Shown: positions 2,651 to 23,351, counted from the stretch's first letter. The stretch: DNA of 24,000 nucleotides from Williamsia sp. MIQD14 (GCF_051025635.1 NZ_JBPFDG010000003.1:338451-362450); one strand, 5' to 3'. Notes: generated by a model not told the origin, from the letters alone. Program-made: numbers and translations.

Positions 2651-3429
2651 CCGCTGTCCTCGACGACCGGTCGTCGGTCGGCCTGGTGTCGGCGTCGGCC
2701 ACGTTGGCGGGCAGAAAGATCCGTGCCGCCGTCCGGTCCGGCGACGCCACCTTCGCGCTGCTGAGCCCCGCGGTGTTCTTCCTCTGCTTCCACACCCCGC
2801 TGCACCGCCGGTTCGAACTCGGTGGTGGCGACTACGCGCAGTTCCTCACCCCGCTGATCCTGGTGCAGGCCGGGCTGTTCGCCGCGATCGCGGCCACCGA
2901 GTCGGCGGGTGCCGATGCCCGTGCGGGCACCCGCATGCGGATGATGTCGATGCCGATCTCCCGTCTCGCGCCGGTCGTGGCCCGCATGACGTGGGTGTCG
3001 GTGCGGATGGTGCTGTCGATCGCCGCCGGTGTCGCCGTCGGCGCGGTTCTCGGCTTCCGCTTCGACGGATCATCCGTCGACACAGCGCTGTTCGTGTGTC
3101 TGCTCGTCGCGTTCGCGGTGTCGGTCAGCCTGCTCACCGATGCGGTGGGCACGATCGTGACCGGCTCGGCCGCGGTCGCCGGCGTGCTGATGATCCCGCA
3201 GCTCATCCTGGTGATGGCCTCGACCGGACTCGTTCCCGCCGAGGGCTTCCCGGGCTGGGCGCAACCGTTCGTCCGCAACCAGCCCGTGTCGGTGCTGACC
3301 GACGCGCTGCGTGCTCTCGCCGAGGGACGTGACATCGACGTCGTCGCGATCGGGTTGTGGTCGCTGGGCCTGTTCGCAGCCGGAGTTCTCGCCGTGAGCA
3401 TCGCCGGACGACGGCAGTTCGCCCGATGA
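2647..3429 (+). CDS. ABC-2 type transporter permease (first of two)
   Basis: 260-aa hydrophobic protein with multiple predicted TM stretches ('AVFFLCF', 'LILVQAGLFAAIAA', 'VLSIAAGVAVGAVLG', 'LFVCLLVAFAVSVSLL', 'LMIPQLILVMA', 'LWSLGLFAAGVLAV'). ATGA overlap with the upstream ATPase stop. Confidence 0.8.
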   Translation: MTAVLDDRSSVGLVSASATLAGRKIRAAVRSGDATFALLSPAVFFLCFHTPLHRRFELGGGDYAQFLTPLILVQAGLFAAIAATESAGADARAGTRMRMMSMPISRLAPVVARMTWVSVRMVLSIAAGVAVGAVLGFRFDGSSVDTALFVCLLVAFAVSVSLLTDAVGTIVTGSAAVAGVLMIPQLILVMASTGLVPAEGFPGWAQPFVRNQPVSVLTDALRALAEGRDIDVVAIGLWSLGLFAAGVLAVSIAGRRQFAR

Positions 3430-4241
3430 CCGCCGGACACGCTGCGGCACAGCTCACTCCGGTGCGCGGCTCGGTGGGTCTCACCCGCCAATCGGTCGTG
3501 CACGCGACCGCGCTGCTGCGCACGTGGTCGCGCGATCCCGGCATCGTGGTGCAGGCCGTCGTGTTCCCGGTGTTCCTGCTGCTGATGTTCCAGCTTGTGC
3601 TCGGCAAGACCGTCACCTCGATGGGCAGCGGCGACAGCATCGTGGGCAACACGGGACTCGTCGCCCTCGTCGGCGCGCTCTACGGGACCGTCGCCGCCGC
3701 GCTGACCGTGATCGCCGACCGCGACTCCGGCGTCCTCGCGCGACTGTGGACCCTGCCGGTGCACCGGTCGGGCTTCCTCCTCGGCCGTCTGCTCGCCGAG
3801 GCGATACGTACCGCGATGGGGACCGTCGTCCTGTTCGCGGTCGCCACGACGATGGGTTTCCGTTTCGATCAGGGGATAGCCGCCGCGGTCGGGGCCCTCG
3901 CCGTACCGATGGTGTTTGGTGTGGGCGTGGCCATCCCGGTGATCGCTCTGGCGACGGTCGCCGCGGGACGCGAGGTGGTGCAGCTGCTCGGTGGCGCGTT
4001 CCTGTTCCTGCTGTTCTTCACCACCGGGTTCGCCCCGCTCACCGAGTACCCGGGGTGGATCCGGCCTGTGGTCGCGCATCAACCCATGAGTCCGGCGATC
4101 GACGCGATCGCCGGCCTCACCGACGGCGGCCCCGTCGCCGCACCCCTCGCGGTCACCGCGGCCTGGACGCTCGGCCTCGCGATCGTGTTCGGCCCGGTGG
4201 CGATGCGCGGCTACCGGCGTGCCGCCGCAGGACCCCGATGA
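3426..4241 (+). CDS. ABC-2 type transporter permease (second of two)
   Basis: Start taken at ATG 3426 (ATGA overlap with the previous stop), giving 'MTAGHAAAQL...'. Multiple TM stretches ('VVFPVFLLLMFQLVLG', 'GLVALVGALYGTVAAAL', 'VVLFAVATTMG', 'FLFLLFFTTGF', 'AAWTLGLAIVFG'). Size and position are typical of a DrrB-like partner. Confidence 0.8.
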   Translation: MTAGHAAAQLTPVRGSVGLTRQSVVHATALLRTWSRDPGIVVQAVVFPVFLLLMFQLVLGKTVTSMGSGDSIVGNTGLVALVGALYGTVAAALTVIADRDSGVLARLWTLPVHRSGFLLGRLLAEAIRTAMGTVVLFAVATTMGFRFDQGIAAAVGALAVPMVFGVGVAIPVIALATVAAGREVVQLLGGAFLFLLFFTTGFAPLTEYPGWIRPVVAHQPMSPAIDAIAGLTDGGPVAAPLAVTAAWTLGLAIVFGPVAMRGYRRAAAGPR

Positions 4242-4300
4242 CCCGACCTCCCGTCCACGCAGTCGACCCCACGACGACTCACAGCAAAGGAGCACCACCC

Positions 4301-4576
4301 ATGACCGAACCCACCGCTGACCCCGGCGCAGACCGCGTGCACGACGAGCTCCGCGACATCCTCGCGAACGACCTCGATCTGTCCCCCGACCACGTCACCG
4401 GCTCGGCCCGCCTCGTCGACGACCTCGGTCTCGACTCGGTCGCCGTCGCGATCGGTGTCGTCGCCATCGAGGAACGCCTCGGCGTCGCCCTCACCGAACG
4501 CGAGATCTTCGAGAGCGCCTCGGTCGCCGACCTCGAGCAGGTCATCCGGTCGCGTCTGGCCGTGGTCGGCGGATGA
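4301..4576 (+). CDS. Stand-alone acyl/peptidyl carrier protein (MbtL-like)
   Basis: 91 aa. Phosphopantetheine attachment motif 'DDLGLDSVAVAIG' with Ser46 at 4436-4438. SD 'AAAGGAG' lies 7-13 nt upstream of ATG 4301. Only the last 91 codons of the 350-aa track ORF look coding. Confidence 0.85.
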   Translation: MTEPTADPGADRVHDELRDILANDLDLSPDHVTGSARLVDDLGLDSVAVAIGVVAIEERLGVALTEREIFESASVADLEQVIRSRLAVVGG

Positions 4577-5865
4577 CCGAGACGACCGAGGTCGCAGACG
4601 TCGCGACGGATGCCGCGGCCGGCCCGACCGAGTACGGCCCGCCGGATTTCACCTACCTGCACATGGACACCCCTGCGCGGCCGATGCACTGGTCGATGGT
4701 CCTCGAGATCGCCGGCGGTGACGCCCCGGTGGGCATCGACGAGATCCGCGATCGGGTGCGCTCGCGGGTCGCGCGCTACGACGTGTTCGGCGTGGGCGTG
4801 CGTGGCGGGCGGTGGCGTCGTCCCGACATCGTCGTGACGCCCGCCGACGCGATCGACATCGACCACCACGTCGTCGCCACCGAGGTGGCCGACGCCGCGG
4901 CCCGTGACCGGATGATCGCCGAGCTGTGCGCCACCCACCTACGACGTCCGGATCCGTTCTGGCACATCACCCTGATGACCGTCGCGGAGTCGGGTGAGCA
5001 GCTGCTGGTGCTGCGGGTGCACCACAGCCTGTCCGACGGCCTGGCCGGTGCGGCGTTCGCCGCGCTGCTCGCCGACGGGACGCCCGAGCAGCTCGCCGAG
5101 TTCGACCGGTTCGGCGCCGGTCCCCGCTTCCGCGTCGGCGACGTCGATCCCGACGTGCTCGCCGACGCCCGCGCCGCCCACGACGAGCAGTGGAAGGCCG
5201 GCCGGTCCGGTCGCGGCTGGCCCGCGCTCACCAGATCCGGCCGCCGCGAGATCGCGACGGTGTCGGTGTCGACCCGCGACCTCCGTCGTGCCGCGAAGCG
5301 CCACGAGGCCACGGTGCACGAGTTCGTGCTGGGTGCCGTCGGCCGAACCCTCAGCGCGCATCCGCCGACCGCGACCGGTCCCGAGAACATCCGGGTGACC
5401 CTGCCCGCCACCCTCGATCCCACGTTCCGCCACACCGGGAACGCCGTGTCGGTGACACTGCTCAACCTCGCGGGCGACGACACCGACCTCGACCGGCAGA
5501 TCGCCCGGAGCCGGGAGCAGTTGTCGCTCATCGAGACCCGGCGCGCGGCACTCGCACTCGCCGCCACCGGGCACCCGTCGCCGCCGTGGCCGGTGATGCG
5601 CGCCATCGTCGGGGCCTCGATGTCGCGGATGGCGCCCGACATCCACATCGGGGTGAATCCCGGGTTCTCCCGGGTGCGTTCGGTGCTGGGGCGTCGGATC
5701 GTCTCGCTCACGCCGCTGTCGCCGCTGGGCGGGTACTCGTTCTCGGTGACCTCGCTGGTCCTCGGCGACCGCACCACGTTCGGGATCGTCACCGACCCGC
5801 AGGCCCTCCCCGGCTACGCGGCGCGCTTCGCCGCCGCCTTCGACGAGCTCCTCACCGCCCCCTGA
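4573..5865 (+). CDS. WS/DGAT-family (wax ester synthase / diacylglycerol acyltransferase-like) acyltransferase
   Basis: 430 aa. N-terminal 'D..YLHMDTPARPMHWSMVLEI' resembles the WS/DGAT N-terminus ('D..FL..E....PMH'). Catalytic 'HHSLSDG' (HHxxxDG) is at 5020-5040. ATGA overlap with the carrier-protein stop. Confidence 0.75.
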   Translation: MTETTEVADVATDAAAGPTEYGPPDFTYLHMDTPARPMHWSMVLEIAGGDAPVGIDEIRDRVRSRVARYDVFGVGVRGGRWRRPDIVVTPADAIDIDHHVVATEVADAAARDRMIAELCATHLRRPDPFWHITLMTVAESGEQLLVLRVHHSLSDGLAGAAFAALLADGTPEQLAEFDRFGAGPRFRVGDVDPDVLADARAAHDEQWKAGRSGRGWPALTRSGRREIATVSVSTRDLRRAAKRHEATVHEFVLGAVGRTLSAHPPTATGPENIRVTLPATLDPTFRHTGNAVSVTLLNLAGDDTDLDRQIARSREQLSLIETRRAALALAATGHPSPPWPVMRAIVGASMSRMAPDIHIGVNPGFSRVRSVLGRRIVSLTPLSPLGGYSFSVTSLVLGDRTTFGIVTDPQALPGYAARFAAAFDELLTAP

Positions 5866-5886
5866 CCCGCCAGTTGGACACGTAAC

Positions 5887-5969
5887 GACCGCAGTCGGGC
5901 ACCGCTTTGTTCGGCCGCCCGCGATCTGAAAGCACAGATTACGAACGACCGACCGACCCGTAGAAGACC
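5887..5969 (+). repeat. Left copy of a degenerate direct repeat bounding the low-G+C insertion (tentative)
   Basis: Collinear short matches with 7592-7658: 'gaccgcag' (5887-5894 / 7592-7599), 'acgaac' (5941-5946 / 7622-7627), 'cgaccgaccc' (5950-5959 / 7639-7648), then 'tagaagacc' versus 'tagaccc'. The spacing between blocks differs. Confidence 0.25.
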
Positions 5970-6115
5970 GGCCTCGGAAGCCGCGCCTGCGCCTATTTAA
6001 TCGGCAGCGCCAACGGAGTGCGGCATCCAGTCGGAGGTGATATCCCGGGACTCACGACCCGCACGGTCGTCGCCACGGCGGCTGGCCAATTGCGGTGCGT
6101 CACGGAAGGCCCTGA

Positions 6116-6334
6116 GTGAGCGCGATTATCGATTCCAAAGGTCCGCTGTCGATCGATCTGGTGTCCCTGCTCGGCTTCGCCTTTCACGAAACGAGTGTCG
6201 GCGACATGCCGAGCATTCGGGACGAGATGTCGCAGGCCGTATCATTGAGCGTGCCGATTGCGGTCCAGTGGGCCATCATTCCCCCGAGTCGGGGGCTGTC
6301 CCTTGGAGGAGGAAAGTTGAATGTTTCTTCGTGA
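6116..6334 (+). CDS. Hypothetical small protein (72 aa), questionable
   Basis: GTG-initiated ORF directly after an in-frame TGA. Its third-codon positions are noticeably more G/C-rich than in the alternative frame 6037-6348 (hand inspection). It ends 14 nt inside the next ORF. No recognisable motif and no clear SD. Confidence 0.25.
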   Translation: MSAIIDSKGPLSIDLVSLLGFAFHETSVGDMPSIRDEMSQAVSLSVPIAVQWAIIPPSRGLSLGGGKLNVSS

Positions 6335-7313
6335 CTACCTATATGTAGATTTGGATAAAGTTCGGGCGTTGATATCGCAAATACTTGATGGAGTTCCCGA
6401 ACTGTCGACTCGCGTGGAAAGAAAAGAGAAAGACCGAGAGTTAAAAAATCGATACATTGGGGGCGTGTCGACGAAAAACGCAGATGAGCAATCGTACGAG
6501 AATAGTCTCTCGGACTCGTTGTTTCGAATCCTCGAAGAGGAACTGGAGCCGCTAGGGCTACTGGTAGATGTTTCACAAGAGCTCGCCGCGTCTAATGATT
6601 GGGGGGCACTTGAGGATACGATCTACCCGGGCGCCATCCTACGAATTTCGGCGCCAGCCACTCTTTTTCACCCGGGGCATCTTTCGAATGCGTTGGTTGG
6701 TATTGCGACGGCTGCGCACGGGTTGTCGACACTGGGAGACGTCGATGCGCCTCCTCCGGCTGGCCCTGGCGGGGGTAAGCGCAAAAATCAGCCTAGAAAC
6801 CGAGCGCTTCCTCAAAAGGTTGCGGGCGGCAACCCGGAAGATTTGTTGCCCTCTGAGGCCAAGATTCCTGTCCTTGACATACCTCGGGAAGAGCTTTCAG
6901 GAATGATTCAGCTTATTCGGGGTCTTTACGACAACGGTGTGCATCTCACAATGAAGCCGTGTGGCTCCGATGGCCCGGTGGTCTCGGCGCGCCTCGAAAG
7001 TGGAAGAAGGTTCCTTGATGCATCGCCTGAGATACTGTTCTCTCGCTACGGCTCAGGCGAACAGGTCTGGACCGCGGTCGGGCTGGTCGGACAGTTAGGC
7101 ATAACTGCCCCTGATGCCGATCCGCCGAGAGCTGTAGACGACGATGGAAACATAAGCCGTGCGTCCACAATGGGACTGATCGACTGGTTTCTCTCGATTG
7201 CGGGCACGTCAGGTCTGATTGACCAGCCTGTCAAGCCTAGCTTTTCATTCGTGCCACTTGCAGTCTATAGATCGATTGGACAGCCTGAGGTGCAGCCGAG
7301 TCTGCATGCGTAA
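6321..7313 (+). CDS. Hypothetical protein (330 aa), no assignable family; cargo of the low-G+C insertion
   Basis: Longest ORF in the islet. Strong SD 'GGAGGAGGA' (6305-6313) lies 7 nt before ATG 6321. The composition looks protein-like and is not Arg/Gly/Pro-skewed like the shadow ORFs. N-terminal 'MFLRDYLYVDLDKVRALISQILDG', central Gly/Pro/Lys/Arg-rich linker 'PPPAGPGGGKRKNQPRNRALPQK'. No TM segment, signal peptide or catalytic motif recognised. Confidence 0.75.
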   Translation: MFLRDYLYVDLDKVRALISQILDGVPELSTRVERKEKDRELKNRYIGGVSTKNADEQSYENSLSDSLFRILEEELEPLGLLVDVSQELAASNDWGALEDTIYPGAILRISAPATLFHPGHLSNALVGIATAAHGLSTLGDVDAPPPAGPGGGKRKNQPRNRALPQKVAGGNPEDLLPSEAKIPVLDIPREELSGMIQLIRGLYDNGVHLTMKPCGSDGPVVSARLESGRRFLDASPEILFSRYGSGEQVWTAVGLVGQLGITAPDADPPRAVDDDGNISRASTMGLIDWFLSIAGTSGLIDQPVKPSFSFVPLAVYRSIGQPEVQPSLHA

Positions 7314-7591
7314 TAAGAAGTTATGTGTATACGCGACTAGTAACGAAAGTCAGAGAGCGAAAGAATCTCAAACAAATTTCAAGGCGTCGGATTCGTACGC
7401 GCGGCAACTGGCAGTGTTAATTTTCGTGTGTCGCGCATATCCTAGGGTGGTGGGACCCTCGTCTTGACCCGCGCCTCGCGGTCCGCTCGAACTAGCTTTG
7501 AAGCTGTTCGGCGGCCCCCGCGACCAACGTCGAACCCAGCAGTACATCCGAATCGTGCCTGTGTCTTCTTTCCGCAAGTTTAAGCGGCAGT

Positions 7592-7658
7592 GACCGCAGA
7601 CTGCCATTTGCACTCGCAAGAACGAACTTCGAAAGTTTCGACCGACCCTTCTAGACCC
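7592..7658 (+). repeat. Right copy of a degenerate direct repeat bounding the low-G+C insertion (tentative)
   Basis: See the left copy (5887-5969). It also contains a small hairpin, ggcagt-gaccgcag-actgcc (7587-7606). Confidence 0.25.
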
Positions 7659-7759
7659 CTCTTCATGCCATGCTGAACAATTGCTGGCACTGTCACGTTC
7701 GTCAGAAGTCGCAGCGAGATCCAACCGGGCCGTCAGCACTTACCGCCCAAATGGGGCGT

Positions 7760-9139
7760 TTACGTGCCCAACTGGGGTAGCGGGAGCTCGATCACGTCCT
7801 CGCCCGGGCCGAAGGTGGTGAACGCCGTGTGGCCGGGGAGCCGGTAGACCTCACGGCCGGTGACCGCGTTGAGGATGCGCGCGTTGCGGACCGCGCCGAT
7901 GTCGAGGTTCGGCGAGGACACGCCGTGGCTGTGTTCCTCGGCGTTCGCGACGAACAGTCGACGGTCGAGGCCCTCGCGCATCGTGACGGAGTGGTCGTCG
8001 GCGATGACCGGTCGGCCCCGGGAGTCCCGGACCATCAGGGCGTCGAGCGGGTCGAGGAACGACGTGCTGCGCGGTCGGTATCCGGTGGCCGCGACGACGA
8101 GGTCGGCGGTGTGCGCGATCGTCGCGCCCGTGTCGTCGTGGCGCGCGTGGATGCGCAGGCGCCCGTCGGGCTGCTCGGCCAGACCCGTCACCGACACCCC
8201 GACACGCAACTGCACCGGCGGGAGCTTGCCGGCGAGCTGGCGGCGGTAGAGCAGATCGTGGAGGCGTTCGAGGGTGTCGGCGGAGATGCCCTTGTGGAAC
8301 TGCCAGTGGCCCGCGCGCACGGAGTCGCGGGTCTGCTCGGGCAGCGAGTGGAAGTAGTCCATGTACGCCGGTGTCGTCATCTCCAGCGACAGCTTCGTGA
8401 AGTCGAGCGGCGCGAACCACCCGGTGCGGGTCCACCACCGTACGGCGGGGCCGCCGGCGAGGTTGGCCTCGAGAAGATCGACGACGATCTCGGCGCCCGA
8501 CTGCCCCGACCCGATGACGGTCACCGCCTCGGCGGCGTGGGCGCGGGACCGGTGGCCGAGGTAGTCGCTGCTGTGGATCAACGACGGTGATCCGGTCGCG
8601 TCCCGCGCGGTCGCCCGTGCCGAGAGCGTCTGTGTCGAGAGCGTTCGGGGCAGATGCGGTTCGGTGCCGACGCCGCAGACCACGTGGGTCGCATGGATGA
8701 CCGACCTCTCGCCGTCGGAGGTGACGACGACACGGAACGAGTCGGTCTCGGCGTCGAAGTGGACCTCGGAGACCGAGGTGTCCCACCGCAGCGAGCCCAG
8801 TCGTTCGACGACCCACAGCAGGTAGGCCTCGTACTCGACGCGTGTGGGGAAGAAGTTCTCGCGCACCAGGAACGGGTAGAGGCGGTCGACGTCGGCGAGA
8901 TAGGCCAGGAACGACATCGGGTGGGTCGGGTCGACGAGCGAGACGAGGTCGGAGAGGAAGCTGACCTGCAGTGTCGCATCGTCGAACATCAACCCGGGAT
9001 GCCAGCGGAACTCCGGGCGTGCGTCGACGACGAGGAGGTCGAGGTCGTCCACGGTCGACGCCAGTGCGGCGAGGCCGAGGTTGAACGGGCCGCAGCCGAT
9101 CGCGAGAACGTCGACGCGACGGGGGGACTCAGTGCTCAC
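7760..9139 (-). CDS. Flavin-dependent lysine/diamine N-hydroxylase (IucD/DesB/AlcA family)
   Basis: FAD motif 'VLAIGCGPFNLGLAA', 'FRWHPGLMF', 'SFLSDLVSLVDPT.P.SFL.YL' (strongly IucD-like as recalled), NADPH motif 'VTVIGSGQSGAEI'. Start chosen at GTG 9139 ('[15 protein letters not shown]'), overlapping the upstream stop by 11 nt. The track ATG at 9235 would add a 32-aa Arg/His/Pro-rich overlap. Confidence 0.9.
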   Translation of the reverse strand: MSTESPRRVDVLAIGCGPFNLGLAALASTVDDLDLLVVDARPEFRWHPGLMFDDATLQVSFLSDLVSLVDPTHPMSFLAYLADVDRLYPFLVRENFFPTRVEYEAYLLWVVERLGSLRWDTSVSEVHFDAETDSFRVVVTSDGERSVIHATHVVCGVGTEPHLPRTLSTQTLSARATARDATGSPSLIHSSDYLGHRSRAHAAEAVTVIGSGQSGAEIVVDLLEANLAGGPAVRWWTRTGWFAPLDFTKLSLEMTTPAYMDYFHSLPEQTRDSVRAGHWQFHKGISADTLERLHDLLYRRQLAGKLPPVQLRVGVSVTGLAEQPDGRLRIHARHDDTGATIAHTADLVVAATGYRPRSTSFLDPLDALMVRDSRGRPVIADDHSVTMREGLDRRLFVANAEEHSHGVSSPNLDIGAVRNARILNAVTGREVYRLPGHTAFTTFGPGEDVIELPLPQLGT

Positions 9140-12100
9140 GGGATGCCTCCAGCGCGTCGGTGGACGGTGAATGGATGGACGGGCCGTCGGCCGAGAGTGC
9201 GCGTGCGTTCTCGGATTCGACCTCGAGTGCCACACGGATGATGTCGTCGAACAGGGCGTCGATGTCGGTCTCGTGGGTCTCGGGGTTGAGCAGGGTCAGC
9301 TTCAGGCAGACCTGCGGGTGGTCGGCGTCGGCGGTCACCACCCGGGTGCGGCCGATGAGGGCCGCCCCGGACCGGATGAGGCGGCGTCGGAGTTCGGCGT
9401 TCACCGCGTCGAGATCGGCGCAGCGGTAGCGGAACACGACCGTGGTGAGGGTCACCGGGGCGATCAGCTCGAGATGCGGTTCGGTAGCGATCCGCTGCTC
9501 GGCGTGCCGTGCGAGATCGTGGCACCGATCGAGCATCGCCCCGAGCCCCAGCCTGCCGTAGGCGAGGAACGTGGCGGCCACCTTGAGGACGTCGGGACGC
9601 CGCGTGGTCTGCAGGGTCTGCCCCAGCAGACCGCCGTATCCCGCCTCGATGTCGTCGGTGGGGTTGAGATACGACACCGACCGGTCGACGGCGGCGAACC
9701 GTCCGGAGTCGGCGAGCAGCAACACACTCGCCGCGGCCGGCTGCCACCCGATCTTGTGGAGATCCAACGTGATCGAGTCGGCACGATCGACCCCGTCGAG
9801 GAGACCGGCGAGTCGATCGGAGAACAACGACCCGAAACCGTAGGCGGCGTCGACGTGCAGCCACACACCGTGCCGACGGGCGATGGCGGAGATCTCGCGC
9901 AGCGGATCGACGGTGCCGAAATCGGTGGTGCCCGCGGTGGCGACGATGGCCACCGGCGTCCGATCCCCGGCGGCGGCGAGCGCGGCCTCGAGCGCCGCGG
10001 GGACCATGCGGTGGTCGTCGTCGACGTCGATGCCGACCACCGCCGATTCGCCGAGACCGAGTGCGGCGCAGGCGCGATGCAGCGAGAAGTGCGCGATCCG
10101 CGAGCAGAACACGACCGGACGGGGGAGTGCTCCGGTGCCGTCGGCGCGGGTGTCGAGGCCGATGGCCGCGGCGGCGTGGTCGCGAGCGATCAACAGGGCC
10201 AGGAGGTTCGAGTACGAGCCACCCGGCCCGAACACGCCGCCCGCATCGGCGCCGAGGCCGGCGAGATCGGCCAGCGCCGCGATCATCCACTGCTCGATGG
10301 CCAGCGTCGCGGGCCCCGAATCGTAGGTGTCGAGGGAGGCGTTGGTGGCCCCGGCGAGGGCGTCGGCGACGACCGCGACCGTCAGGGGTGGGGGTTGCAG
10401 GTGCGCGGCGGTACGTGTGTGGGTGAGGTCGAGACCGTGTCGTGCGACGAGGTCGCCGAGACGGGCCAGTGCCTGCGATTCGCCGATGCCGGCCGAGGGG
10501 ATGACCCGCGGGCCGAGGCGGGAACCGACCTCGTCGAGGACGTCACCGGGGAGTCCGTGCGGCAGGGGTGCGCCGTGGTGGGACGTGGCGGAGACCGATT
10601 CGGCCATGCGGATGAGATCCTCGCCGACCTGTGCCCACCCCCGACCGGGGGAGGTGAAACGAGAACGGCGTGCGGGCAACTCGGGGAAGGCGCACGCCGC
10701 ACGCACCGCGTCGACGAGGTCGGCGACGGTGGAGTCGAGGTCGGCGGGCAGTTCACGGAGCAGACCCATCGCTACGCCCGGCGCACGCTGCGTCACCTCC
10801 GCGTCGGGGGTGTCGGTGCGACGGTCGATCTCGAGTTGGATCCCGTCGTCGGTGATCTCGAAGGCATAGCTCAGCGTGTAGCCGCCGACGCCTGTCGAGA
10901 CCGATCGGTAGGCGACGCCGCCTCCGGCTGCGACACCCCGTACCGGTGCGCTGCGCACCGAGGCCATCACGTCGGCGACGGGGAACCGCCCGCCGTGGGT
11001 GCGCAGGGCGGTCAGCAGGGTGCCGTAGTCGACCGACGCGAACTCCATCGCCGAGTAGACGGCGGACATCATGCGGTGCAACGTCTCCCGGACCGATGCC
11101 GTCGGGTCGACGGTGAACCGGATCGGCACGATGTTGCCGCAGTACCCGACCGCACGCGGGTCCTCGTCGGCCCGCCGGTTCTCGCTCGGGACGAGCATCA
11201 CGAAGTCGTCGGCGCCGCTGAGCGAGTGTGCGGCCAGCGCGCACACCCCGATCATCAGTGCGTTCGATGTCGCGCCGATGTCGCGGGCGACGTCGGCCAG
11301 GGCGGTGACCACCGCGGGGTCGACGGCGCGGCGGTCCCGCGACACCGCGCCCTCGTCGAGGGGGGTGATCCAGCTCTGTTCGGCCGACTCCGTCGGCCGG
11401 GCCCCGGTCAGCGGGTGCCGGATGTCGTCGGCGGCCCAGGTCGACAGGGCATGGCGCAGTGCGTCGTCGACCGGTGCTGCAGATCCATCCGGCCCGGCAC
11501 CGCCTGTCTCGGTCCCGCCGGTCTCGACACCGGTGACCGTGCTCGCGCCGGCGACGAGGGGGCCCAGCACTACCGGCCACGAGGTGCCGTCGACGGCGAT
11601 GTGGTGGATGACGAGGATCAGCGTGCACGTGCCGTCGGGGAGCACGGTCAGGCGTGCGCGGGCCGGTGCCTCGTCGGCCAGATTGAACGGCCGTCGGGTG
11701 AGCGACTCCGCGGCGTCGTCGACGTCGTCGATTCGTGCTTCGCCCTCCGCCGACGCGGGCCACTCCCAGACGGTGTCGGGTGCCGACCAGCCGGCCTCGA
11801 CGTCGACGCGCCGCCGTCGCACGACACCCTCGTCGTCGACGATGACCGACGACAGGACCGGGCTGCGCAGCGTCTCCTCGAGGGCGGCGACCACACTCTG
11901 CGCCGGCCGACCGTCGATGAACGTGAGCACGAGACCGATGTTGTGCGAGATCGACGCGGGATCGAGCTGGTGGATACGCCACATCCGACATTCGGCGACG
12001 CCGAGCTCACCGTCCGGTCGGGGCGTCGAATCCGTTGCGGCGTCGGGAGTCGAGGCCGTGTCGGCGGCGACCGCGCCGGTGTCGACACCGGCGAGGCGTC

Positions 12101-12140
12101 GTCGCATCAGCTCGAGCCGTGATTCGTCCAGTACGCTCAC
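9129..12140 (-). CDS. Fusion protein: NRPS-type condensation domain (N-terminal) + PLP-dependent group II amino-acid decarboxylase (C-terminal)
   Basis: C domain spans about aa 45-480 (nt 10701-12008), with C1-like '[13 protein letters not shown]' and C3 '[12 protein letters not shown]' (HHxxxDG at 11586-11606). The decarboxylase spans about aa 500-975 (nt 9216-10643), with 'GGSYSNL', '[13 protein letters not shown]', 'HVDAAYG' and the PLP-lysine motif '[13 protein letters not shown]' (Lys796 at 9753-9755). No carrier or adenylation domain. GTG start in a GTGA overlap with the upstream stop. Confidence 0.9.
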
Positions 12141-14464
12141 GCGTCCTCCATCGTTCGACTGTCGGTGGTTGTCCCCGTGGTGGCCGGGGTGGAGATCGGG
12201 TCATGGGCGGTCTCGGTCGGCAACCGGTCCCAGGAGTCGACGACGGGCAGCAGATCACCACGCGCCCACCGTGACGACTGGTTCTGATAGGCGCGGTCGC
12301 GCGGGTCGCCGGAGGCCCCGAGGGGTACCACCCACCGGCTGGCGGAGCGGTCGGCGAGGTCCCACACGAAACGCGCGGCCGAGCCGACGCTGCAGGCGTG
12401 GCTGAAACCGATTGCGCTGCCGTTGGCGAACACTGTCTCGGCGTCGCCGCCGAGAGCGTGCGGATGGGGGCGCAGCCGTGCCGAGAGTGCGGGGTGGGCG
12501 GCCGTCGCACCGACGAGGTCGAACCCGTGGATCGGGGTGAGCACGTGCACGTCACCCCACGTCGGGATGTCGTCGAGGTGGTCGAGACCGGTGGCGACGG
12601 CGTCGATGGCCTCGCGCAGGATCGCGGTGACGTCCGCACCGAGCCCGCCCGCGTGGGTGACCACCGATTCCAGTGCGGCCGAGACGCGGGGCAGCGAGAC
12701 GAACCAGGGATCGAAGACGGCGGGGAACACGTGCCGGGTCGCCAACGGCTGCAGCGCGGGCGAGCGGATGAGGCCCCGGACGAGATGGGCACGGATCTCG
12801 GCGAACACGTAGGCCTGCGTGCTGTCGACGGCCATCGACCGGTCCCATCCGTCGAGGTGCGCGACCAGTCGGCGTCCACGCCTGTCGAGGCCGTCGACGT
12901 CGGCGAGAAGCCGGACCACGACATCCCGCTCGTCGAGGACGTCGTCGCGATGGATCCGTTCGGAATCGGCGACGCTGTGCTGGGACTTGGCGCGCAGGAG
13001 TGTCGCGATCCGGTCGGCACGATCGGCGCGGACACATTCGGTCGTGACGGGCTGCAGCGGCGCCGACGTCATGCGTTGGTTGGCGATGATCGAGAACGAC
13101 GCGACCTCGGCTGTCCCGGGCTCGTGGACCGAGGTGGCGCGCATCCCGGTCCACCGGTGCCGATCGGTCCAGCCGGGCACCGGGAGCCAGTAGTTCTCGG
13201 GTGTGCGTTCGGGCATCGCCCCGACGAGGTGGGCCACGAGTCGACCGCTCGTGTCGCCGATGACGACGCGGTTGACCGGCTCCACCCAGTCGCCCAGCGC
13301 ACGTTCGACATCGGTGATCGACGCCGCGAAGAGCAGGTCGATGAACGGATCGGCGGTGGTGGTCTCGTCGTGGAGGATCGGGGTGCGCAGGCTCAGTGCG
13401 ATCGGTGCGTCGGGTCCGCCGACGATCACCGATCCGTGTGTGGTGTCGATGATCTCGACCGTCACCGGTTCGGCGTCACGCACCGTGATGGATTCGGTCC
13501 GGGTCGCCACCTCGGTGTCGCCGTGGGGTCCCTGTGCGGTCACCGACCCGTCTCGGCGCGAGAGGCGTTCGATGTAGACGTCCTGGTGGTCGCCCATCGC
13601 GTTGGTGATGCCCCATGCGACCGGGCCCGCGTGGCTGAAGTGCGGCATGCCCGGGACCCCGGCGAACGCAAGGCCGACGACGTCGAATTCCGGTGACGCG
13701 AGATGGGTCTGGAGGTAGATCCCGGGGAGTTCGAGGAAGCGGTGCGGATCGCCGGCGATCTGCGGCGAGCCGCTCGACGAGTGTGCGGCGGCGACTCCCC
13801 ATGCGTTGCTGCCGCTGATCGCGTCGCTGAGCGGAGTCGGTCCGGGCGGTTCGGCCCCGGTGGTGCCCGCTGCCGCGAACTCGGCGAGCACGGTGTCGAG
13901 GAACGCGGTGTCGGGCAGGGGCGGGTCGAAGGGATCGTCCGGGTCGGGGTCGTCGGGGCCCTCGAAATCGAACAGGCGCAGGGCATCCGGACCGAGATGG
14001 GTGCAGGCGTGCACGCGCCACAGTTTGGTCAGGAAACGGCCGAAGAGGATGTTGTGGGTGATGAACACCGCGATTGGCGTCCACGGTGACCAGGGCGCCG
14101 GCCGGTGGTCGAGTTCGGTGAGTTCGAGGGCCCGGGCGGTGCCCAGCGTGCTGTTGACCCCGTCGACATACGCCGCGAACAGGTCTCGCGTCCGCACCGA
14201 GGAGCGAGCGAGGATCCGGCGTGCGGCGCGGTCGATCCCGGCGCGCCGGGCGAACTCGTCCCAGCCGACGGCGTCGGCGCCGAAGACCTCGGCGGTGCGG
14301 CCCTCCGACCGCAGTCGGAGGAACTCGATCTGCCAGGCGCGGTCGAGGCCACACGCCCGGCCCTGTCCGTACAGGGCGCCGCGTGCCGAGTGGGCGCGGA
14401 TGTGCGGGACACCCCATGCGTCGCGGCGGATCTCGACACCCTGGGCATCGCAGGGAGCGGTCAC
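12137..14464 (-). CDS. Penicillin amidase/acylase family Ntn hydrolase (peptidase S45; PvdQ-like siderophore/AHL acylase)
   Basis: 775 aa. N-terminal '[13 protein letters not shown]....ALYGQG.A...DR.WQ' is typical of the family alpha subunit. The autoprocessing/nucleophile motif is 'SG|SNAWGV', with Ser219 at 13808-13810. GTGA overlaps at both ends. No N-terminal hydrophobic signal sequence is visible. Confidence 0.85.
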
Positions 14465-16305
14465 GGGCGTTGCGCTGCCGACGGCGGGGAGGGGGCGTAC
14501 CGCGCGATCGGGTTCACGAGGCGGTGGTCGGTGTCGAGCAGGGCGGCGTAGGAGTCACCGAGATCCACCATGCGGCGACTGTTGCCGAGCTGCAGGCGGT
14601 TCATGTGGATGGCCCCGAAGTCGGGTGCGAACAGGTCCCACCGGGCGAACCGGTCGGCGAGGTCGGGGTGGTCGCCGATGTAGGCGGTCACGCTGTCGGC
14701 GACGGTCTTCCAGAACGAGGCGTCGTCGCACAGACCGGCCTGGTGCAGGATCCCGGCCAATGGTCGGAGGAAGTCGTCGAAGACGTCGGACAGGATGCCC
14801 AGGTTGCCGATGGCGTCGTCGGTGGGGACGACCGCGCGGCGGCAGGACTCGGGCAACCCGGGGGCGTCGTCGCCGATGGTGACCTCCTCGCCGATGTCCT
14901 TGAGGATCGCCCGCACCGGCACGCCGTCGGCGAGCACCAGGATCAGGTTCTCGCCGTGCGGCGAGAACTTCAGCCGGTACCGGTAGAGGAGGTGGATGAT
15001 CGGGTGCAGATAGGTGCGCAGGTAGCGCGCGAGCCATGCGGTGGCGGACAGTCCGGACCGTTCGACGAGCGCACCCACCAGCGGGTCACCGCGGTGGTCG
15101 ATGTGCAGCAGTGCCGCCATCGTCATCAGCTGCTGGTCGTCGTCGACGAGACCGACGGGGCTCTGCCGCCACAGCGCCGACATCAGTTTCCGGTACTCCG
15201 ATCCGGGCTCGGTGACGCTCTGCAGCACCGGGTTGCGGTAGCCGATCGCGACGACCTCGAACACCATCGTGAAGCCCACGGACCGCAGGAACGGGTCGTC
15301 GCCGACCCGGTCCCGGACCCAGTCGTTGATGAGCGGGGTGGTGCGCATGTAGTCGGCCGACATCCCGCGGGTGAAGCCCATGTTGGTGATCGACAGGGCG
15401 AGTTTGACGTAGTGCCTGCGGGGTTCGTCGGCGTTGAACAGCGTGCGGATCGACTGCTGTGGTCGATACAGGTCGGTGCCCTCCCCGACGCACACCAGCG
15501 TGCCCTCGGCGAGTTCGCGCGCGAAGACGCGAGCGACCTTCTCGTTCCACTGCCACGGGTGCACGGGCAGGTAGAGGAAGTCGGCGGGATCGAGTCCCCG
15601 CGAACGCAACTCGGCGTCGAACTCGTCGAGGGTGGTCGAACCCAGTTCGCCGCGCAGCAGGTCGTGGTGGTCGTGGTCGGACATGGCCGCGACCTCGCAG
15701 TGTCCGCGGGGCGCCGCGACCCACACCAGTCGGCAGTGCTCACCGCGCTCGGGTGCATAGCGGGCGACGTCGTCGGAGCTGAACCCGATACGACCGGCAT
15801 TGGCCACGATGCAGGGATGTCCCTCGGTCATCGTCTGCTCGACGGTCTGGAAATCCGCCCGGGCCAGTTCCGCTGCGGGGACACGGAGGTGGTCGGGTCG
15901 ATCGGCGCCCAGGCCGAGCGTGTTGACGAACTCCTCGAGATAGGCGGGCACGGCGTCGGCGGCGATCGCGAGGCGCTCGCGCAGGTCGAGAAGCATCGCG
16001 ACCGGATCGACCGGCACGTCGGCGCCGTCTACCAGGCGGCGCATCGACGGCCCGTCGATCACCCAGTTGTCCAGCGACAACACCTCGGCACGGAACACGT
16101 ACTCGGTGCTTTGGTCGTCGGAAACGACCAGATACATCGAACCGGCACCCGACGCCCCGGCGTCGTCGGGACCGGGCCCCAACGGGATCGGGTGGATGAT
16201 CTGTTCGTGGGCGAACTCGGCCAGCACCTTGCGCGCCATACGTCGCCCGTACACCGCGGCCATGTGGGCGCGGCCGTCGGTGACGGGTGACACCGTGGCG
16301 GTCAC
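14461..16305 (-). CDS. IucA/IucC-family NRPS-independent siderophore (NIS) synthetase
   Basis: Family hallmarks 'LPVHPWQW', 'SIRTL', '[15 protein letters not shown]' and '[11 protein letters not shown]'. Start chosen at GTG 16305 (GTGA overlap with the NRPS stop). The track ATG at 16347 would overlap the NRPS by 46 nt. Confidence 0.9.
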
Positions 16306-19300
16306 CGGGTGGCCGTCTCGGTCGCGGCGAAATCCTCTGCTGTGCAATAGCTCAGACGCGCCGTCTTCGCCCCGACGGGGTGATCGCCGGCGACGCGGAA
16401 CCCGACCAGGTCGTTGAGTCGATGAACGGCGGTGTTGCGGACGTCGGGTTCGACGACGACGCGCCGCGCGCCGGCCTCGGTGAACGCGGTCCGCATGATG
16501 TGGCGCATGACCGCTTCGGTGAAGCCGGCCACCGGGGTGTCGGTCGGGGCGACCAGCAGGTGCATGCCGACGTCGCCGGGGGAGTGGACGTAACCGGTAC
16601 CCGCATCGGCCAGTTCGCTCGAGAGGGGTTCGTAGAGTTCGAAGAGGAACTGCGGCTCGGCCCCCACGCCTCCGACACGGTCCTCATCCCCGCCGACACC
16701 GACGACGCCGAGTCGCATCCCGAAACCGGTCGCGTCGGCATGGGTGATCAGGGCGACGACCTCCTCGCGGGTGGCCGACGACATGTCCCAGAAGTGCGAC
16801 TTGGGGTGGGTGAGCCACCGGTGCACGAGGTCGACGTCGGTGTCGAGATCGATACGACGATGGGTGATCTCGCGGTCGGTGGTGTCCGGGTCGCTGTCGG
16901 CCCGGTCGAGTTCGGAGGCGACCTCGCCGGCCGAGAGCCCGAGCACATCGAGCATCACCTCGGCGACCTCGGTGATCGCCGCACCGTGCAGTTCGTCGAG
17001 CCGTGTCGCGACACCCGCGACGGATCGGCGGGTGAAGACGTCGGCCACGGTCACCGAGGCCGCGGCACCGGGTACGGCGAGCCACCGGCGGATCTCGGCG
17101 ACGAACCGTGTGGCGAGCACCGAATCCCCGCCCAGGGCGACGAACTCGTCGGTGACGCCGATCGGCCGTGTGTCGAGGATGGTCTCGAGCACCGTCACGA
17201 GGGCCTTCTCCACCGGCGTGCGCGGGGCAATCGACGCCGACGACCCGGCGTCGTCGAACTGCTCTGCGATACGCGCCCGATCGAGTTTGCCGTTGGCGGT
17301 CAACGGGAGCCGGTCGACGACGGTGATCGATCGCGGGATCATGTGCGCGGGGAGCAGTGCACCCAGATCGGCGACGAGACGCGGGGGTTCGGAGGTTTCT
17401 GTGGTCGGTCCGGTCACCGCGGCCCGCAGGTCGCGTCCGTCGGTCCAGGCCACGGCGGCCGACACCTGCTCCAGGCGTAGCAGTGCGGCCTCCACCTCGC
17501 CGAGTTCCACGCGATGCCCGCGGATCTTCACCATGTGGTCGTCGCGGCCGAGGAAGTCGAGGAACGCACCCGGCAGGTACCGCGCGACATCCCCGGTGCG
17601 GTACCACCGCACGTCGTCGACCTCGACGAAACGCTCCGCGGTGCGGTCGGTGTCCCCGCGATACCCCGCGGCCACCCCGTCGCCGCCGATCCAGAGTTCA
17701 CCGGGCACGAAGTCGGGCCGATCGCGGCCGATGGCGTCGACGACCCGGCAGCGCACGCCGCGCAGGGGGGTGCCGTACGGGACGAAGCCGCTGTCCTCAC
17801 CGACGTCGGCCAGTTCGCAGACGGTGGAGTGGATCGCGGTCTCGGTGGTGCCGCCGAGACCCGCGGCGCGGACGCCCGGTACCTGCTCGGCGATGCGCCG
17901 CAGATGGCCCACCTCGACACGGTCGCCTCCGGTGAGCACGACCCGCAGCGACGCGGGCATGTCGGTGATGTCGAGGAGCATCCCGAGAACCGTGGGGACG
18001 CAGTTCAGTACGGTCACCGACGCCTCGTGGAGCGCCCGAGCCCAGGAGTCGACGCGGGTGGTGGGGTCGTCGTCTCCGACGACCACCGATCCGCCGACGG
18101 CGAGCAGTGCGAACACGTCGAACACCGAGAGGTCGAACTCGAGGGACGACACCATGAGCGCGCGATCGGATGCGTCCAGCTCGTATCGGTCGGTGAGGTC
18201 GGTCAGCGTCGCGACCGCGGCGCGATGGGGGACCTCGACACCCTTCGGGGTACCGGTCGACCCCGAGGTGAACAGGATGTAGGCGAGCGAGTCGGGGCCG
18301 CTCGGGTCGTCGGAGGGGTCGAGTGGTGCGGCCGAGGACGTGTCGTCGAACACGACGACCTCGATCGCGGTGTCGGATACGCGGTCGGGCCGGTCGGTGA
18401 GCACCGCCGATGGGGTCGCCACCGCGACGATGCGGTCGCGGCGATCGGCCGGTTGCGACAGCGAGATCGGTACGTAGGTGGCGCCGGCCGCGAGAACGCC
18501 GATGGCCGCGACGATCTGCGGTGCGCCCTTGGGCATCGTCACGACGACGGTGTCGCCGGCGCCGACACCGGCTGCGCGCAGTGCCCCCGCCACCCGTCGT
18601 GCACGGTCGGCGAGTTCGCCGTGGGTCCAGTTGGACTCGTCGTCGACGAGCGCGGCGGTGTCGGCCCGGGATGCGGAGCGATCGAGGATGCCGCGGTGCA
18701 GCGTGCCGTCGAAGATGTCGGTGTCGGGCAGCGGATGTTCGACGGCGTGACGCTCGGCGATCACCTCGGACGGCACGCTCGAGGGTGCCGGTCGCCCCCA
18801 GTCGCCGATGACGAGCAGGTCGAGCAGCGTGACGTAATGATCGAACATCGACTGCGCCACAGCAGGATCGAGATCGGAGGCGCGGACGTCCCAATTCAGC
18901 AGCAATCCGCCGTCGATCTCGGTGACCTGCGCGTCGAGGAGGACCTGGGGGCCCTGCGACACGATCCAGGACGGGGTGCCGAACACCTCGGTCACCGCGG
19001 GGGAGAACAGTTCGCCGAGCCCGAGTGCGCTGGTGAACACCACCGGCGACACCACCGGTTCGCCGCGCCGCCGGCTGAGGTCGCGCAGGACGTCGAGGCC
19101 GCTCACGGTGCCGTGCGCCGCGGCGTCGTGCATCGCCGCACGCATGTCCACGGCGCGCTCGACGAGGGTCCGCTCGGCCGTCAGATCGACGGCGACGACG
19201 ATGGACGACGTGAAGTCGCCGACCACCCGGTCGACGTCCGCGTGGGTCGCGTCGCGATCGAAGAGGGGAACCGTCAGCAGGAAACGGGATGTGGCCGAGT

Positions 19301-20390
19301 GTGTTCCGACGGCCTCGGCGAACATCGCGGCGACCGCGGTCGCCGGTGTGACGCCGTGTGCGTGGGCGTGGGTCTCGAGGCGCTCGCGATCGGCCGCGTC
19401 GATGACGTGGTGCAGCCGCACCGTCGTGGCGCCGCCGTCCGCGCCGGAACCGGTCGGGTCGGTACGCGGCAGCTCCGGTGGTCCGGGGAGGTCGTCGAGA
19501 CGCGCCCGCCACCAGGCGATGTCGGCGTCGCGGGCCGGCCGCGACGCGCGTGCCGCCGACAGGGTGCGGAAGTCGGTGCCCAGCGGGGTCAACTGCTCGC
19601 CGCGGTGGAGGCGGGCCAGGTCGTCGACGAGGACGCGGAAGCTCATGGCGTCGGCCGCGATCATGTCGACGTCGAGATGTACCCGGGTGCGGCCCCGGGG
19701 TAACAGGGTGAGCTCGACGCGGATCACCTGACCGTCCTCGACCGGCAGCATCGCGTGGGTGTTGGCCCGGCGCTGCTGCGTGAGGAACTCCCCGACCGCC
19801 TGCTCGGACCGGCGTCGGAGGTCGTGGACGCGCACGGCCTCCGGGTGTGCATCGCCGACGCGCTGGGTGCCGTCGGGTGCCACCGCCACGCGCGTCATCG
19901 GATGCCGCGCGAGGAGAGCGGCGACGGAGGCTCGGAAGCGGTCCGGATCGATTGCCGTGCCGTCGAACTCGACGTACAGGTGTGCGGCGACACCGCCGAG
20001 GTCGTGGCTGTCGGAGCGGCCGACCCAGTACGCGTGCTGCATGGGGGCGAGCGGAAACGGCGAGTCGTCATCGGCGGCCGCGTCGGTGGGATGCACGTCG
20101 CCGCGTCGCGGTTCGTTCGCCTCGGCCACGCCCGTGTCGGGGCCCGGTCGGTCGAGCAGACGCGACCACGCCACGATCGTCGGCTCCTGCGCCAGTCGCG
20201 CGAAGTCGATGTCGTACCCGCGTTTGCGCCACTGACCTGCGAGCCGCATCATCCGCAGCGAATCGAGCCCCTGCGCGATGAGGTCGCTCTGCGGATCGAG
20301 ATCGGCCGGGTCGACGCCGAGTGCCGCTCCGACCGCCGACACCACGTCGGTCGACGCGCCCTCCGTCGACACCGCTGTATCGACCACCAT
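16302..20390 (-). CDS. Non-ribosomal peptide synthetase, ArCP-Cy-A-PCP-GNAT (IucB/MbtK-like N-acyltransferase) architecture
   Basis: 1362 aa. SD 'GAAGGGGAG' precedes ATG 20390. ArCP: aa ~10-78, '[12 protein letters not shown]', Ser44 (nt 20157-20363). Cy domain: aa ~110-530, '[15 protein letters not shown]' and DxxxxDxxS 'DMIAADAMS' at 19641-19667. A domain: aa ~575-1040, '[17 protein letters not shown]', 'FDLSVFDVF', 'GLGGTTE', '[14 protein letters not shown]', 'YRTGDVARY', '[14 protein letters not shown]', 'NGKLDR'. PCP: aa ~1055-1130, '[11 protein letters not shown]', Ser1090. C-terminal aa ~1175-1355 (nt 16326-16868): '[15 protein letters not shown]' and '[17 protein letters not shown]' match MbtK/IucB ('RRIMFDPDHRNTATRRL' in MbtK as recalled). 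No TE or reductase domain. Confidence 0.9.
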
Positions 20391-20424: not shown

Positions 20425-20448
20425 TTAGGTTAGGTTAGGCTTAATATA
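20425..20448. promoter_or_regulatory. IdeR/DtxR-type iron box(es) in the divergent NRPS / FAAL promoter region
   Basis: TTAGGTTAGGTTAGGCTTAATATA contains three tandem TTAGG pentamers. Two overlapping 19-mers (20425-20443 and 20430-20448) each match TWAGGTWAGSCTWACCTWA at 16/19 (hand count). The site overlaps a -10-like TAATAT (20442-20447). It is 35 nt from the NRPS start and 33 nt from the FAAL start. Confidence 0.65.
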
Positions 20449-23332: not shown

Positions 23333-23351
23333 TGAGGTTAGCCTCACCTAT
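23333..23351. promoter_or_regulatory. IdeR/DtxR-type iron box upstream of the membrane-anchored protein gene
   Basis: TGAGGTTAGCCTCACCTAT matches TWAGGTWAGSCTWACCTWA at 16/19. Its core AGGTTAG-C-CTCACCT is a near-perfect palindrome. It overlaps a -10-like TATATT (23349-23354) and lies 56 nt upstream of ATG 23407. Confidence 0.65.

Follow-up and report, generated by a model that had tools for sequence, protein, structure and literature searches.

A condensation domain-decarboxylase fusion in a nocardichelin-type siderophore cluster of Williamsia

Closest described systems

In the acinetobactin, pseudomonine, and anguibactin pathways, terminal condensation (C) domains take N-hydroxyhistamine as the acceptor: the soluble amine that frees the aryl-oxazoline or aryl-thiazoline from its thioester comes from a pyridoxal phosphate (PLP)-dependent decarboxylase and an N-monooxygenase encoded in the same cluster. 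The amine in those systems is derived from histidine, and the C domain is located within a nonribosomal peptide synthetase (NRPS) protein that bears a peptidyl carrier protein (PCP) domain. Here, we describe a gene in which a C domain and a group II PLP-dependent decarboxylase make up one polypeptide of 1003 amino acids (aa). It occupies positions 9129..12140 (minus strand) of a 24,000-nucleotide (nt) stretch of the genome of Williamsia sp. MIQD14 (GCF_051025635.1, NZ_JBPFDG010000003.1:338451-362450), to which we refer throughout as the window.

Two further types of enzyme resemble the halves of this protein. VibH, from the vibriobactin pathway, is likewise a C enzyme with neither an adenylation (A) nor a PCP domain, and by analogy a carrier-bound acyl donor and a soluble amine acceptor are predicted for the Williamsia enzyme. 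VibH differs in that it is not fused to an amine-supplying enzyme, and its donor is 2,3-dihydroxybenzoyl, whereas the donor in Williamsia would be salicyl-oxazolinyl. The lysine decarboxylases of desferrioxamine biosynthesis (DesA/DfoJ) share with the second half the group II PLP fold, the lysine of the DxHK motif, and DesB-, DesC-, and DesD-like neighbors; in contrast to them, the Williamsia protein carries a C domain of 490 aa at its N-terminus.

The ncd cluster was identified and partly characterized in Nocardia carnea NBRC 14403 (Fisk et al., ACS Chem Biol 2025), according to two papers that cite that study. As stated in a citing preprint, the units of nocardichelin B are salicylate, serine, two N-hydroxycadaverines, succinate, and tetradec-2-enoate, and the GNAT domain of NcdE, the ortholog of the Williamsia NRPS, is likewise said in a citing preprint to handle fatty acyl units. 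NcdF is given in a citing paper as the NRPS-independent siderophore (NIS) enzyme that joins N-hydroxy-N-succinylcadaverine (HSC) to the fatty-acyl unit. Thus, as far as these citing papers go, the pathway itself is not uncharacterized. For Gordonia rubripertincta CWB2, equivalent genes that include a separate "Condensation domain" gene and DesA are given in Table S7 of a PLoS Biology paper (PMC12161575), and both are ~7-fold induced in low iron. The same paper names the amidase DesG, describes its role, and argues for channeling in the case of desG-desH fusions.

The Williamsia locus has the same core gene order as the ncd cluster and the CWB2 locus, with 55-72% protein identity, and shares with both the genes for salicylate synthase, salicyl-AMP ligase, and MbtL/M/N-like and WS/DGAT-like proteins. 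More broadly, synteny of the core extends to Gordonia and Dietzia besides N. carnea NBRC 14403, with identities of 52-72%. In N. carnea NBRC 14403, the genes for the NRPS, the IucA/C synthetase, the amidase, the C enzyme, the decarboxylase, and the N-monooxygenase are collinear with those of the window (59-69% identity), the NRPS being 63% identical to its ortholog over its full length. The N. carnea acyl carrier protein (ACP), MbtN-like, and WS/DGAT-like genes are also close (55-62%), and only the match for the fatty acyl-AMP ligase (FAAL) is weak (35%). What sets the loci apart is that the C enzyme (~490 aa) and the decarboxylase (~514 aa) of the ncd cluster and the CWB2 locus are separate and their genes divided by a spacer, whereas in Williamsia they are one 1003-aa polypeptide. 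The pathway class and both enzyme functions are already known or proposed; it is the fused C-decarboxylase polypeptide that is, as far as we found, undescribed.

A single gene for both enzymes

Translation of the window gives a 1003-codon open reading frame (ORF) at 9129-12140 (minus strand) that is free of interruptions, as an initial annotation of the window had stated. The four motifs named in that annotation are all present, namely, a C1-like motif (residues 49-59), HHIAVDG (179-185), HVDAAYG (762-768), and DLHK (793-796). Its description of two domains with neither A nor PCP also stands: Pfam finds both Condensation and Pyridoxal_deC, and no match to AMP-binding or PP-binding anywhere in the protein.

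Each half of the ORF has a G+C content of 0.87 at third codon positions (GC3). Long chance ORFs are common in the window because of its composition (~70% G+C), and one of 983 aa runs on the opposite strand (9171-12122, plus strand). As its G+C maximum falls at codon position 1, versus the GC3 of 0.87 on the minus strand, we regard it as an antisense shadow. The fused gene starts with GTG at 12140, which is preceded by GGAGGA and overlaps the stop codon of the upstream amidase gene (GTGA), and orthologs align with the window protein from residue 1 onward. The 1003-codon gene is genuine. Taken as a whole, the observations presented here are best explained if two neighboring genes of a nocardichelin-type cluster were fused in frame in one lineage, and we consider this explanation probable.

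Distribution of fused and split forms

Relatives of the whole query were sought in one genome per species, which provided 39 loci in Williamsia, Nocardia, Gordonia, and Dietzia, and the DNA of every one of them was read for its fused or split state. The C and decarboxylase genes are adjacent but separate in 37 of the 39 species, which belong to Nocardia (N. carnea NBRC 14403 included), Gordonia, and Dietzia, with the C gene closed by a stop codon. The spacer measures 16-229 nt (median 107 nt, measured up to a conserved F..PGxGW motif), and the decarboxylase gene is in a frame different from that of the C gene in 31 of the 37 split species. Eight more metagenome contigs are likewise split. Outside the window, a single ORF was found only in Williamsia herbipolensis, Williamsia sp. 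Leaf354, Williamsia sp. SKLECPSW1, four ENA metagenome contigs, and one read-archive (Logan) contig, the fused sequences being 66-86% identical to the window protein.

Fused C domains share 58% identity with each other versus at most 50% with those of split forms, and for the decarboxylases the corresponding values are 77% and at most 74%. Every split form is more distant from the fused forms than these are from one another, from which we infer one fusion event, maintained since. The sequences thus point to a fusion that arose once, probably via loss of the stop codon and a short spacer. The fusion is derived, rare, and restricted to one genus; it represents a variant and not a system of a new kind.

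The combination of a C domain with a decarboxylase was absent from the multi-domain matches within the top 150 representatives by score in a set of 1.84 billion proteins. In a word-indexed search of a protein collection, the full-length query gave at least three fused clusters, and each half was used as a separate query as well. No paper that describes a C-decarboxylase fused polypeptide was found in a literature search. The architecture is rare, and the statement of the initial annotation that it is not known to have been characterized agrees with these results.

The condensation half

The Condensation domain covers approximately residues 45-470 (10731..12008, minus strand), as judged from the match to PF00668 (70.9 bits, cut-off 30.6), an AlphaFold2 (AF2) model, and Foldseek. 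Modeled alone, it has a complete fold, with a predicted local distance difference test score (pLDDT) of 85.4 and a predicted template modeling score (pTM) of 0.84. The Foldseek matches obtained with this model are LgrA, Txo2, and DhbF (E ~1e-23 for their C domains), the PCP-C of FscG, CDA-C1, and RzmA (overall, E 1e-23 to 1e-20, with query TM-scores [TMq] of 0.6-0.68). By sequence the half is divergent, its best E-value against the PDB being 4e-8. The catalytic motif HHIAVDG is read directly in the translation (11586..11606, minus strand), and none of the 41 aligned orthologs (four fused and 37 split sequences) deviates at H179, H180, or D184. In sequence and in the model, the C half thus looks functional and not like a pseudogene.

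The last position of the motif (G185, window 11586-11588) follows the state of the gene, reading HHIAVDG in all four fused sequences and HHLAVDD in the 37 split orthologs. Another variable site is the loop at residues 200-220, which is of low complexity and has pLDDT < 50 in the window protein; at the equivalent place, the C enzyme of Gordonia araii (locus L025) contains a long tandem peptide repeat with units of ~14 aa such as SATDEARSTAHGGR.

The decarboxylase half

The second half, approximately residues 493-985 (9186..10664, minus strand), is a group II PLP-dependent decarboxylase of the DesA/DfoJ type. Pfam matches PF00282 (Pyridoxal_deC) at residues 588-906 with 180.2 bits (cut-off 27). 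The lysine expected to bind PLP, K796, is read directly in DLHK (9753..9764, minus strand) and is invariant in 41 of 41 orthologs. Like the C half, this half thus looks intact and functional. In a PDB sequence search, the best solved relative is 5O5C, a "decarboxylase involved in desferrioxamine biosynthesis" (DfoJ; E 4e-72), behind which ranks the 2,4-diaminobutyrate decarboxylase 2QMA (E 1.6e-63). The score against the NCBIfam equivalog for RhbB, an L-2,4-diaminobutyrate decarboxylase (NF052646), is 314.5 bits, below the cut-off of 900, and the half is 66-74% identical to its counterparts in split ncd-type clusters. Given the orthology to a cluster with a cadaverine-containing product, lysine is predicted as the substrate and cadaverine as the most likely diamine; we consider ornithine or 2,4-diaminobutyrate less probable as the substrate.

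Close homologs of this half are fused to other partners, among the best 150 representatives to GNAT, N-monooxygenase, IucA/IucC, and class III aminotransferase domains. As the family has such varied partners, merging with an operon neighbor is evidently common and need not mark consecutive steps. These other siderophore decarboxylase fusions, and the desG-desH fusions (PMC12161575), are like the Williamsia gene in that neighboring pathway genes have merged into one ORF; they differ in that none of the multi-domain matches in the best 150 representatives has a Condensation partner. Individual representatives (P0007, P0008, P0018, P0094, P0051, and P0092) are fused to DesC-like GNAT, DesB-like monooxygenase, IucA/IucC synthetase, class III aminotransferases, and class II DAHP synthase.

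The junction

Alignment of fused and split orthologs places the junction at residues 483-495 (10656..10694, minus strand), where the last helix of the C domain passes directly into the conserved decarboxylase N-terminus, that is, into what is the N-terminus in split forms. Compared with N. carnea (VSEKIAFPRRQRSKFATPG), the Williamsia sequence retains neither the stop codon nor the spacer. The initial annotation had proposed using AlphaFold to look for a channel between the domains, and no confident inter-domain arrangement emerged: the full-length model has a pTM of 0.51, with residues 490-529 at pLDDT < 50. No defined inter-domain geometry is predicted, given this pTM and the disordered junction, although the alignment behind the model held only four fused sequences, which makes it weak evidence either way.

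Proposed role

The NRPS encoded two genes upstream (16302..20390, minus strand) reads ArCP-Cy-A-PCP-GNAT (Acetyltransf_8) in Pfam, and both Pfam and a reading of the sequence bear out the earlier observation that it has no thioesterase (TE) domain. The cluster contains no free C domain other than that of the fused gene. In nocardichelin, we take the salicyl-oxazoline carboxyl to be joined by an amide to a cadaverine-derived primary amine. The product amide, the TE-less NRPS, and the only free C domain together suggest amide-forming release of the VibH kind, similar also to the N-hydroxyhistamine-dependent release of acinetobactin-type siderophores, and the best-supported role of the C half, from its sequence and by analogy, would be that of an amine-dependent release catalyst of the TE-less NRPS.

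In the pathway that we propose, the decarboxylase half would convert lysine to cadaverine, from which the N-monooxygenase would give N-hydroxycadaverine. Acyltransferases would then give HSC and a fatty-acyl hydroxamate unit, candidates being the GNAT of the NRPS and perhaps the WS/DGAT-like enzyme, and the NIS synthetase would link these two units. Finally, the HHxxxDG site of the C half would direct the cadaverine-derived primary amine onto salicyl-oxazolinyl-S-PCP, so that an amide is formed and the chain released in a VibH-like manner. Release by amidation had already been suggested in the initial annotation, and it fits both the product structure and the TE-less NRPS. The accompanying suggestion that the fusion accounts for the missing TE must be dropped: the genes are separate in 37 of 39 species, so the fusion is neither needed for release nor an explanation of why there is no TE. 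Most likely, what the fusion provides is a fixed 1:1 expression of the two enzymes and a tether between the C domain and a decarboxylase for which a dimer is expected in view of its family. The fusion does not seem to amount to an obligatory new mechanism.

Some points weigh against the account given above. VibH has no detectable special sequence relationship to the Williamsia C half, as it is not among the PDB sequence matches at E ≤ 0.01 nor in the Foldseek top 50. Candidates for the amine acceptor, moreover, are cadaverine, N-hydroxycadaverine, HSC, and the complete NIS product; because the NIS enzyme joins HSC to the fatty-acyl unit, as stated in the citing paper, the acceptor may be a late and larger amine. 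Lastly, NCBI models the decarboxylase of Williamsia as a separate protein with an internal start, which we consider below.

The conserved fusion has some value. It is Rosetta-stone evidence that ties the free-standing C enzyme of nocardichelin-type clusters to the supply of cadaverine, and this link supports the C enzyme as the amine-dependent release catalyst of the TE-less NRPS. The fused protein is also a ready construct for probing how NRPS and NIS chemistry are linked, and whether attaching an amine-forming enzyme to a C domain makes their coupling better; such a design could also serve in the engineering of amide-capped NRPS products. How this class of pathway is understood does not change.

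Alternative explanations

As the initial annotation had put forward with its direct coupling of diamine formation to release, the fused decarboxylase might pass cadaverine directly to the acceptor site of the C domain, in which case salicyl-oxazolinyl-cadaverine would be released first, and N-hydroxylation, succinylation, and NIS ligation would follow. Such channeling gains something from a junction that is essentially linker-free and from a fusion kept under selection across sequences only 66% identical, and a comparable argument was made for the desG-desH fusions (PMC12161575). However, the two enzymes are separate proteins in 37 of 39 species and in eight metagenome contigs, with genes 16-229 nt apart; the full-length model, with its pTM of 0.51 and disordered junction, offers no geometry for transfer; and partners that make no direct use of the decarboxylase product (GNAT, IucA/IucC) occur in other fusions within this family. 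The joining of HSC to the fatty-acyl unit by the NIS enzyme, as related in the citing paper, also suggests a late and larger acceptor. We therefore regard channeling as unlikely. A more elaborate form of the idea, which we consider quite doubtful, is a dimeric module that makes the amine and releases the chain: paired decarboxylases would join two C domains, and nascent cadaverine would be captured as the chain-releasing nucleophile. Were it true, salicyl-oxazolinyl-cadaverine would be made first and tailored later, the order of assembly would differ from that of the split Nocardia and Gordonia systems, and the product spectrum might differ too.

A different explanation is implicit in the NCBI gene models, in which a decarboxylase of ~516 aa is made (or is also made) from an internal start and the C region is a remnant or pseudogene. 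For Williamsia sp. MIQD14, the RefSeq protein is WP_434216952.1 (516 aa), which is 100% identical over the decarboxylase half and starts at an internal TTG (L488; 10677..10679, minus strand). RefSeq decarboxylases of 497-520 aa with internal starts exist for five Williamsia genomes, there are ATG codons at the junction in the SKLECPSW1 lineage, and in SKLECPSW1, the one locus inspected for this, no protein is called over the ~1.4 kb C-domain stretch (L053, 4598-6000) despite its continuous ORF. On the other hand, no Shine-Dalgarno-like sequence is present upstream of the TTG (10679-10677), and no Williamsia-lineage sequence has a stop codon between the halves, so that translation of the C domain must run on into the decarboxylase. 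A remnant would also be hard to reconcile with a C half that has a GC3 of 0.87, an invariant HHxxxD, and a confidently predicted full fold. Other gene callers give fused proteins of 964-992 aa; an exact look-up did not find the 1003-aa sequence itself in the protein collection. In view of the missing Shine-Dalgarno sequence and the lack of any stop between the halves, the short model is probably an artifact of homolog-guided start choice, and the NCBI version of the gene is in our judgment very unlikely; that some initiation occurs at the TTG besides the fused product is conceivable. There is a practical consequence, in that genome mining based on NCBI calls for Williamsia would probably miss the release enzyme.

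It is highly improbable that the C domain is instead a starter-C-like acyltransferase that transfers the fatty acyl chain carried by the MbtL-like ACP to N-hydroxycadaverine and takes no part in release. The starter C domains RzmA and CDA-C1 are indeed among its structural neighbors, and genes for a FAAL, an ACP, and an acyl-ACP dehydrogenase are present in the cluster. Yet the cluster already has two candidates for N-acyltransfer, the GNAT fused to the NRPS and the WS/DGAT-like protein, and the citing preprint has the NcdE GNAT handle fatty acyl units. Moreover, the TE-less NRPS would be left without a release catalyst.

That two separate genes were turned into one ORF by a sequencing or assembly error, through a deleted stop codon or a frameshift, is hardly credible, even though two genes are present in most relatives: contrary to the split by a stop or frameshift that the initial annotation had envisaged resequencing might reveal, the same continuous ORF occurs in at least eight independent assemblies from different strains and samples, and the entire intergenic spacer is absent, which is more than one base, so the independent Williamsia-lineage sequences, with both stop codon and spacer gone, exclude a sequencing artifact.

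Neighboring genes and regulation

The fused gene is the fourth in a translationally coupled operon of the order NRPS, NIS synthetase, amidase, C-decarboxylase, and N-monooxygenase. The NIS synthetase gene (14461..16305, minus strand), DesD/NcdF-like with IucA/IucC and FhuF domains by Pfam, has its likely start at GTG 16305, in a GTGA overlap with the NRPS stop codon. It is followed by the gene for a penicillin-amidase family protein (12137..14464, minus strand; PF01804, E 3.5e-143), which is DesG-like and has GTGA overlaps at both ends. Downstream from the fused gene is that of a lysine/ornithine-type, DesB-like N-monooxygenase (7760..9139, minus strand; PF13434, E 1.7e-97). Its likely start is GTG at 9139, with GGAGG, so that it shares 11 nt with the end of the fused gene, and its best score is against a "histamine N-monooxygenase" model (357.6 bits, below the cut-off of 700). 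Thus, the operon junctions at 16302-16305, 14461-14464, and 12137-12140 are all GTGA, and that at 9129-9139 is an 11-nt overlap; in split relatives, the junction between the C and decarboxylase genes is the exception, with its spacer of 16-229 nt.

Within the NRPS, the Cy domain reads DMIAAD where HHxxxDG would stand, and the C-terminal GNAT belongs to the IucB/DesC/MbtK family. The specificity code of the A domain, derived by hand, is roughly DLFNLGLIHK, which presumably falls between the typical Cys and Thr codes of cyclizing modules.

Divergent from the NRPS operon, the plus strand encodes an MbtM-like FAAL (20481-22160; NCBIfam NF004510, 661 bits, cut-off 621) and an MbtN-like acyl-ACP dehydrogenase (22145-23317; NF037942, 621 bits, below the cut-off of 700). 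At the other end of the window, tblastn and translation identify the 5' end of a salicyl-AMP ligase gene, which runs off the left window edge (233 to 1, minus strand), and a salicylate synthase gene follows at 327-1655 (plus strand; TIGR03494, 486.8 bits, cut-off 325). An ABC ATPase and two ABC-2 permeases, the second at 3357-4241, are also encoded on the plus strand of the cluster, as are an MbtL-like ACP (~4301-4576, start inferred) and a WS/DGAT-like acyltransferase (4573-5865), both identified with Pfam and NCBIfam. A 350-aa ORF at 3524-4576 (plus strand) could be taken for a permease-ACP fusion. We rejected this candidate because its first ~250 residues, which are rich in Arg, Gly, and Pro, are an out-of-frame shadow of the permease at 3357-4241; PP-binding matches at the C-terminus, and the probable start of the ACP is an ATG near 4301.

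Four matches to an iron-box pattern (at most three mismatches to TWAGGTWAGSCTWACCTWA) were found in the window, versus zero expected by chance, and these pattern matches predict sites of the IdeR/DmdR type. One lies at 257-275, in the divergent promoter of the salicyl-AMP ligase and salicylate synthase genes, and two that overlap each other lie at 20425..20448 (plus strand), in the divergent promoter of the NRPS operon and the FAAL gene. The remaining one, at 23333-23351, precedes an Ala/Pro-rich, membrane-anchored ORF at the right window end. The cluster is, by its sequence, a hybrid NRPS-NIS siderophore cluster under predicted iron-box control.

A stretch of low G+C content at ~6000-8000 (56-58% vs. 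70% in the cluster) falls between the WS/DGAT-like and N-monooxygenase genes (window 5866-7759). It carries a DUF6414 ORF (6321-7313, plus strand), and a PADLOC search of it gave no match. In W. herbipolensis and Leaf354, the WS/DGAT-like and N-monooxygenase genes are only ~150 nt apart, and two other loci (L049 and L053) have DUF222 and LEH/SnoaL genes at this position. The low-G+C stretch therefore looks like a variable insertion site within the cluster.

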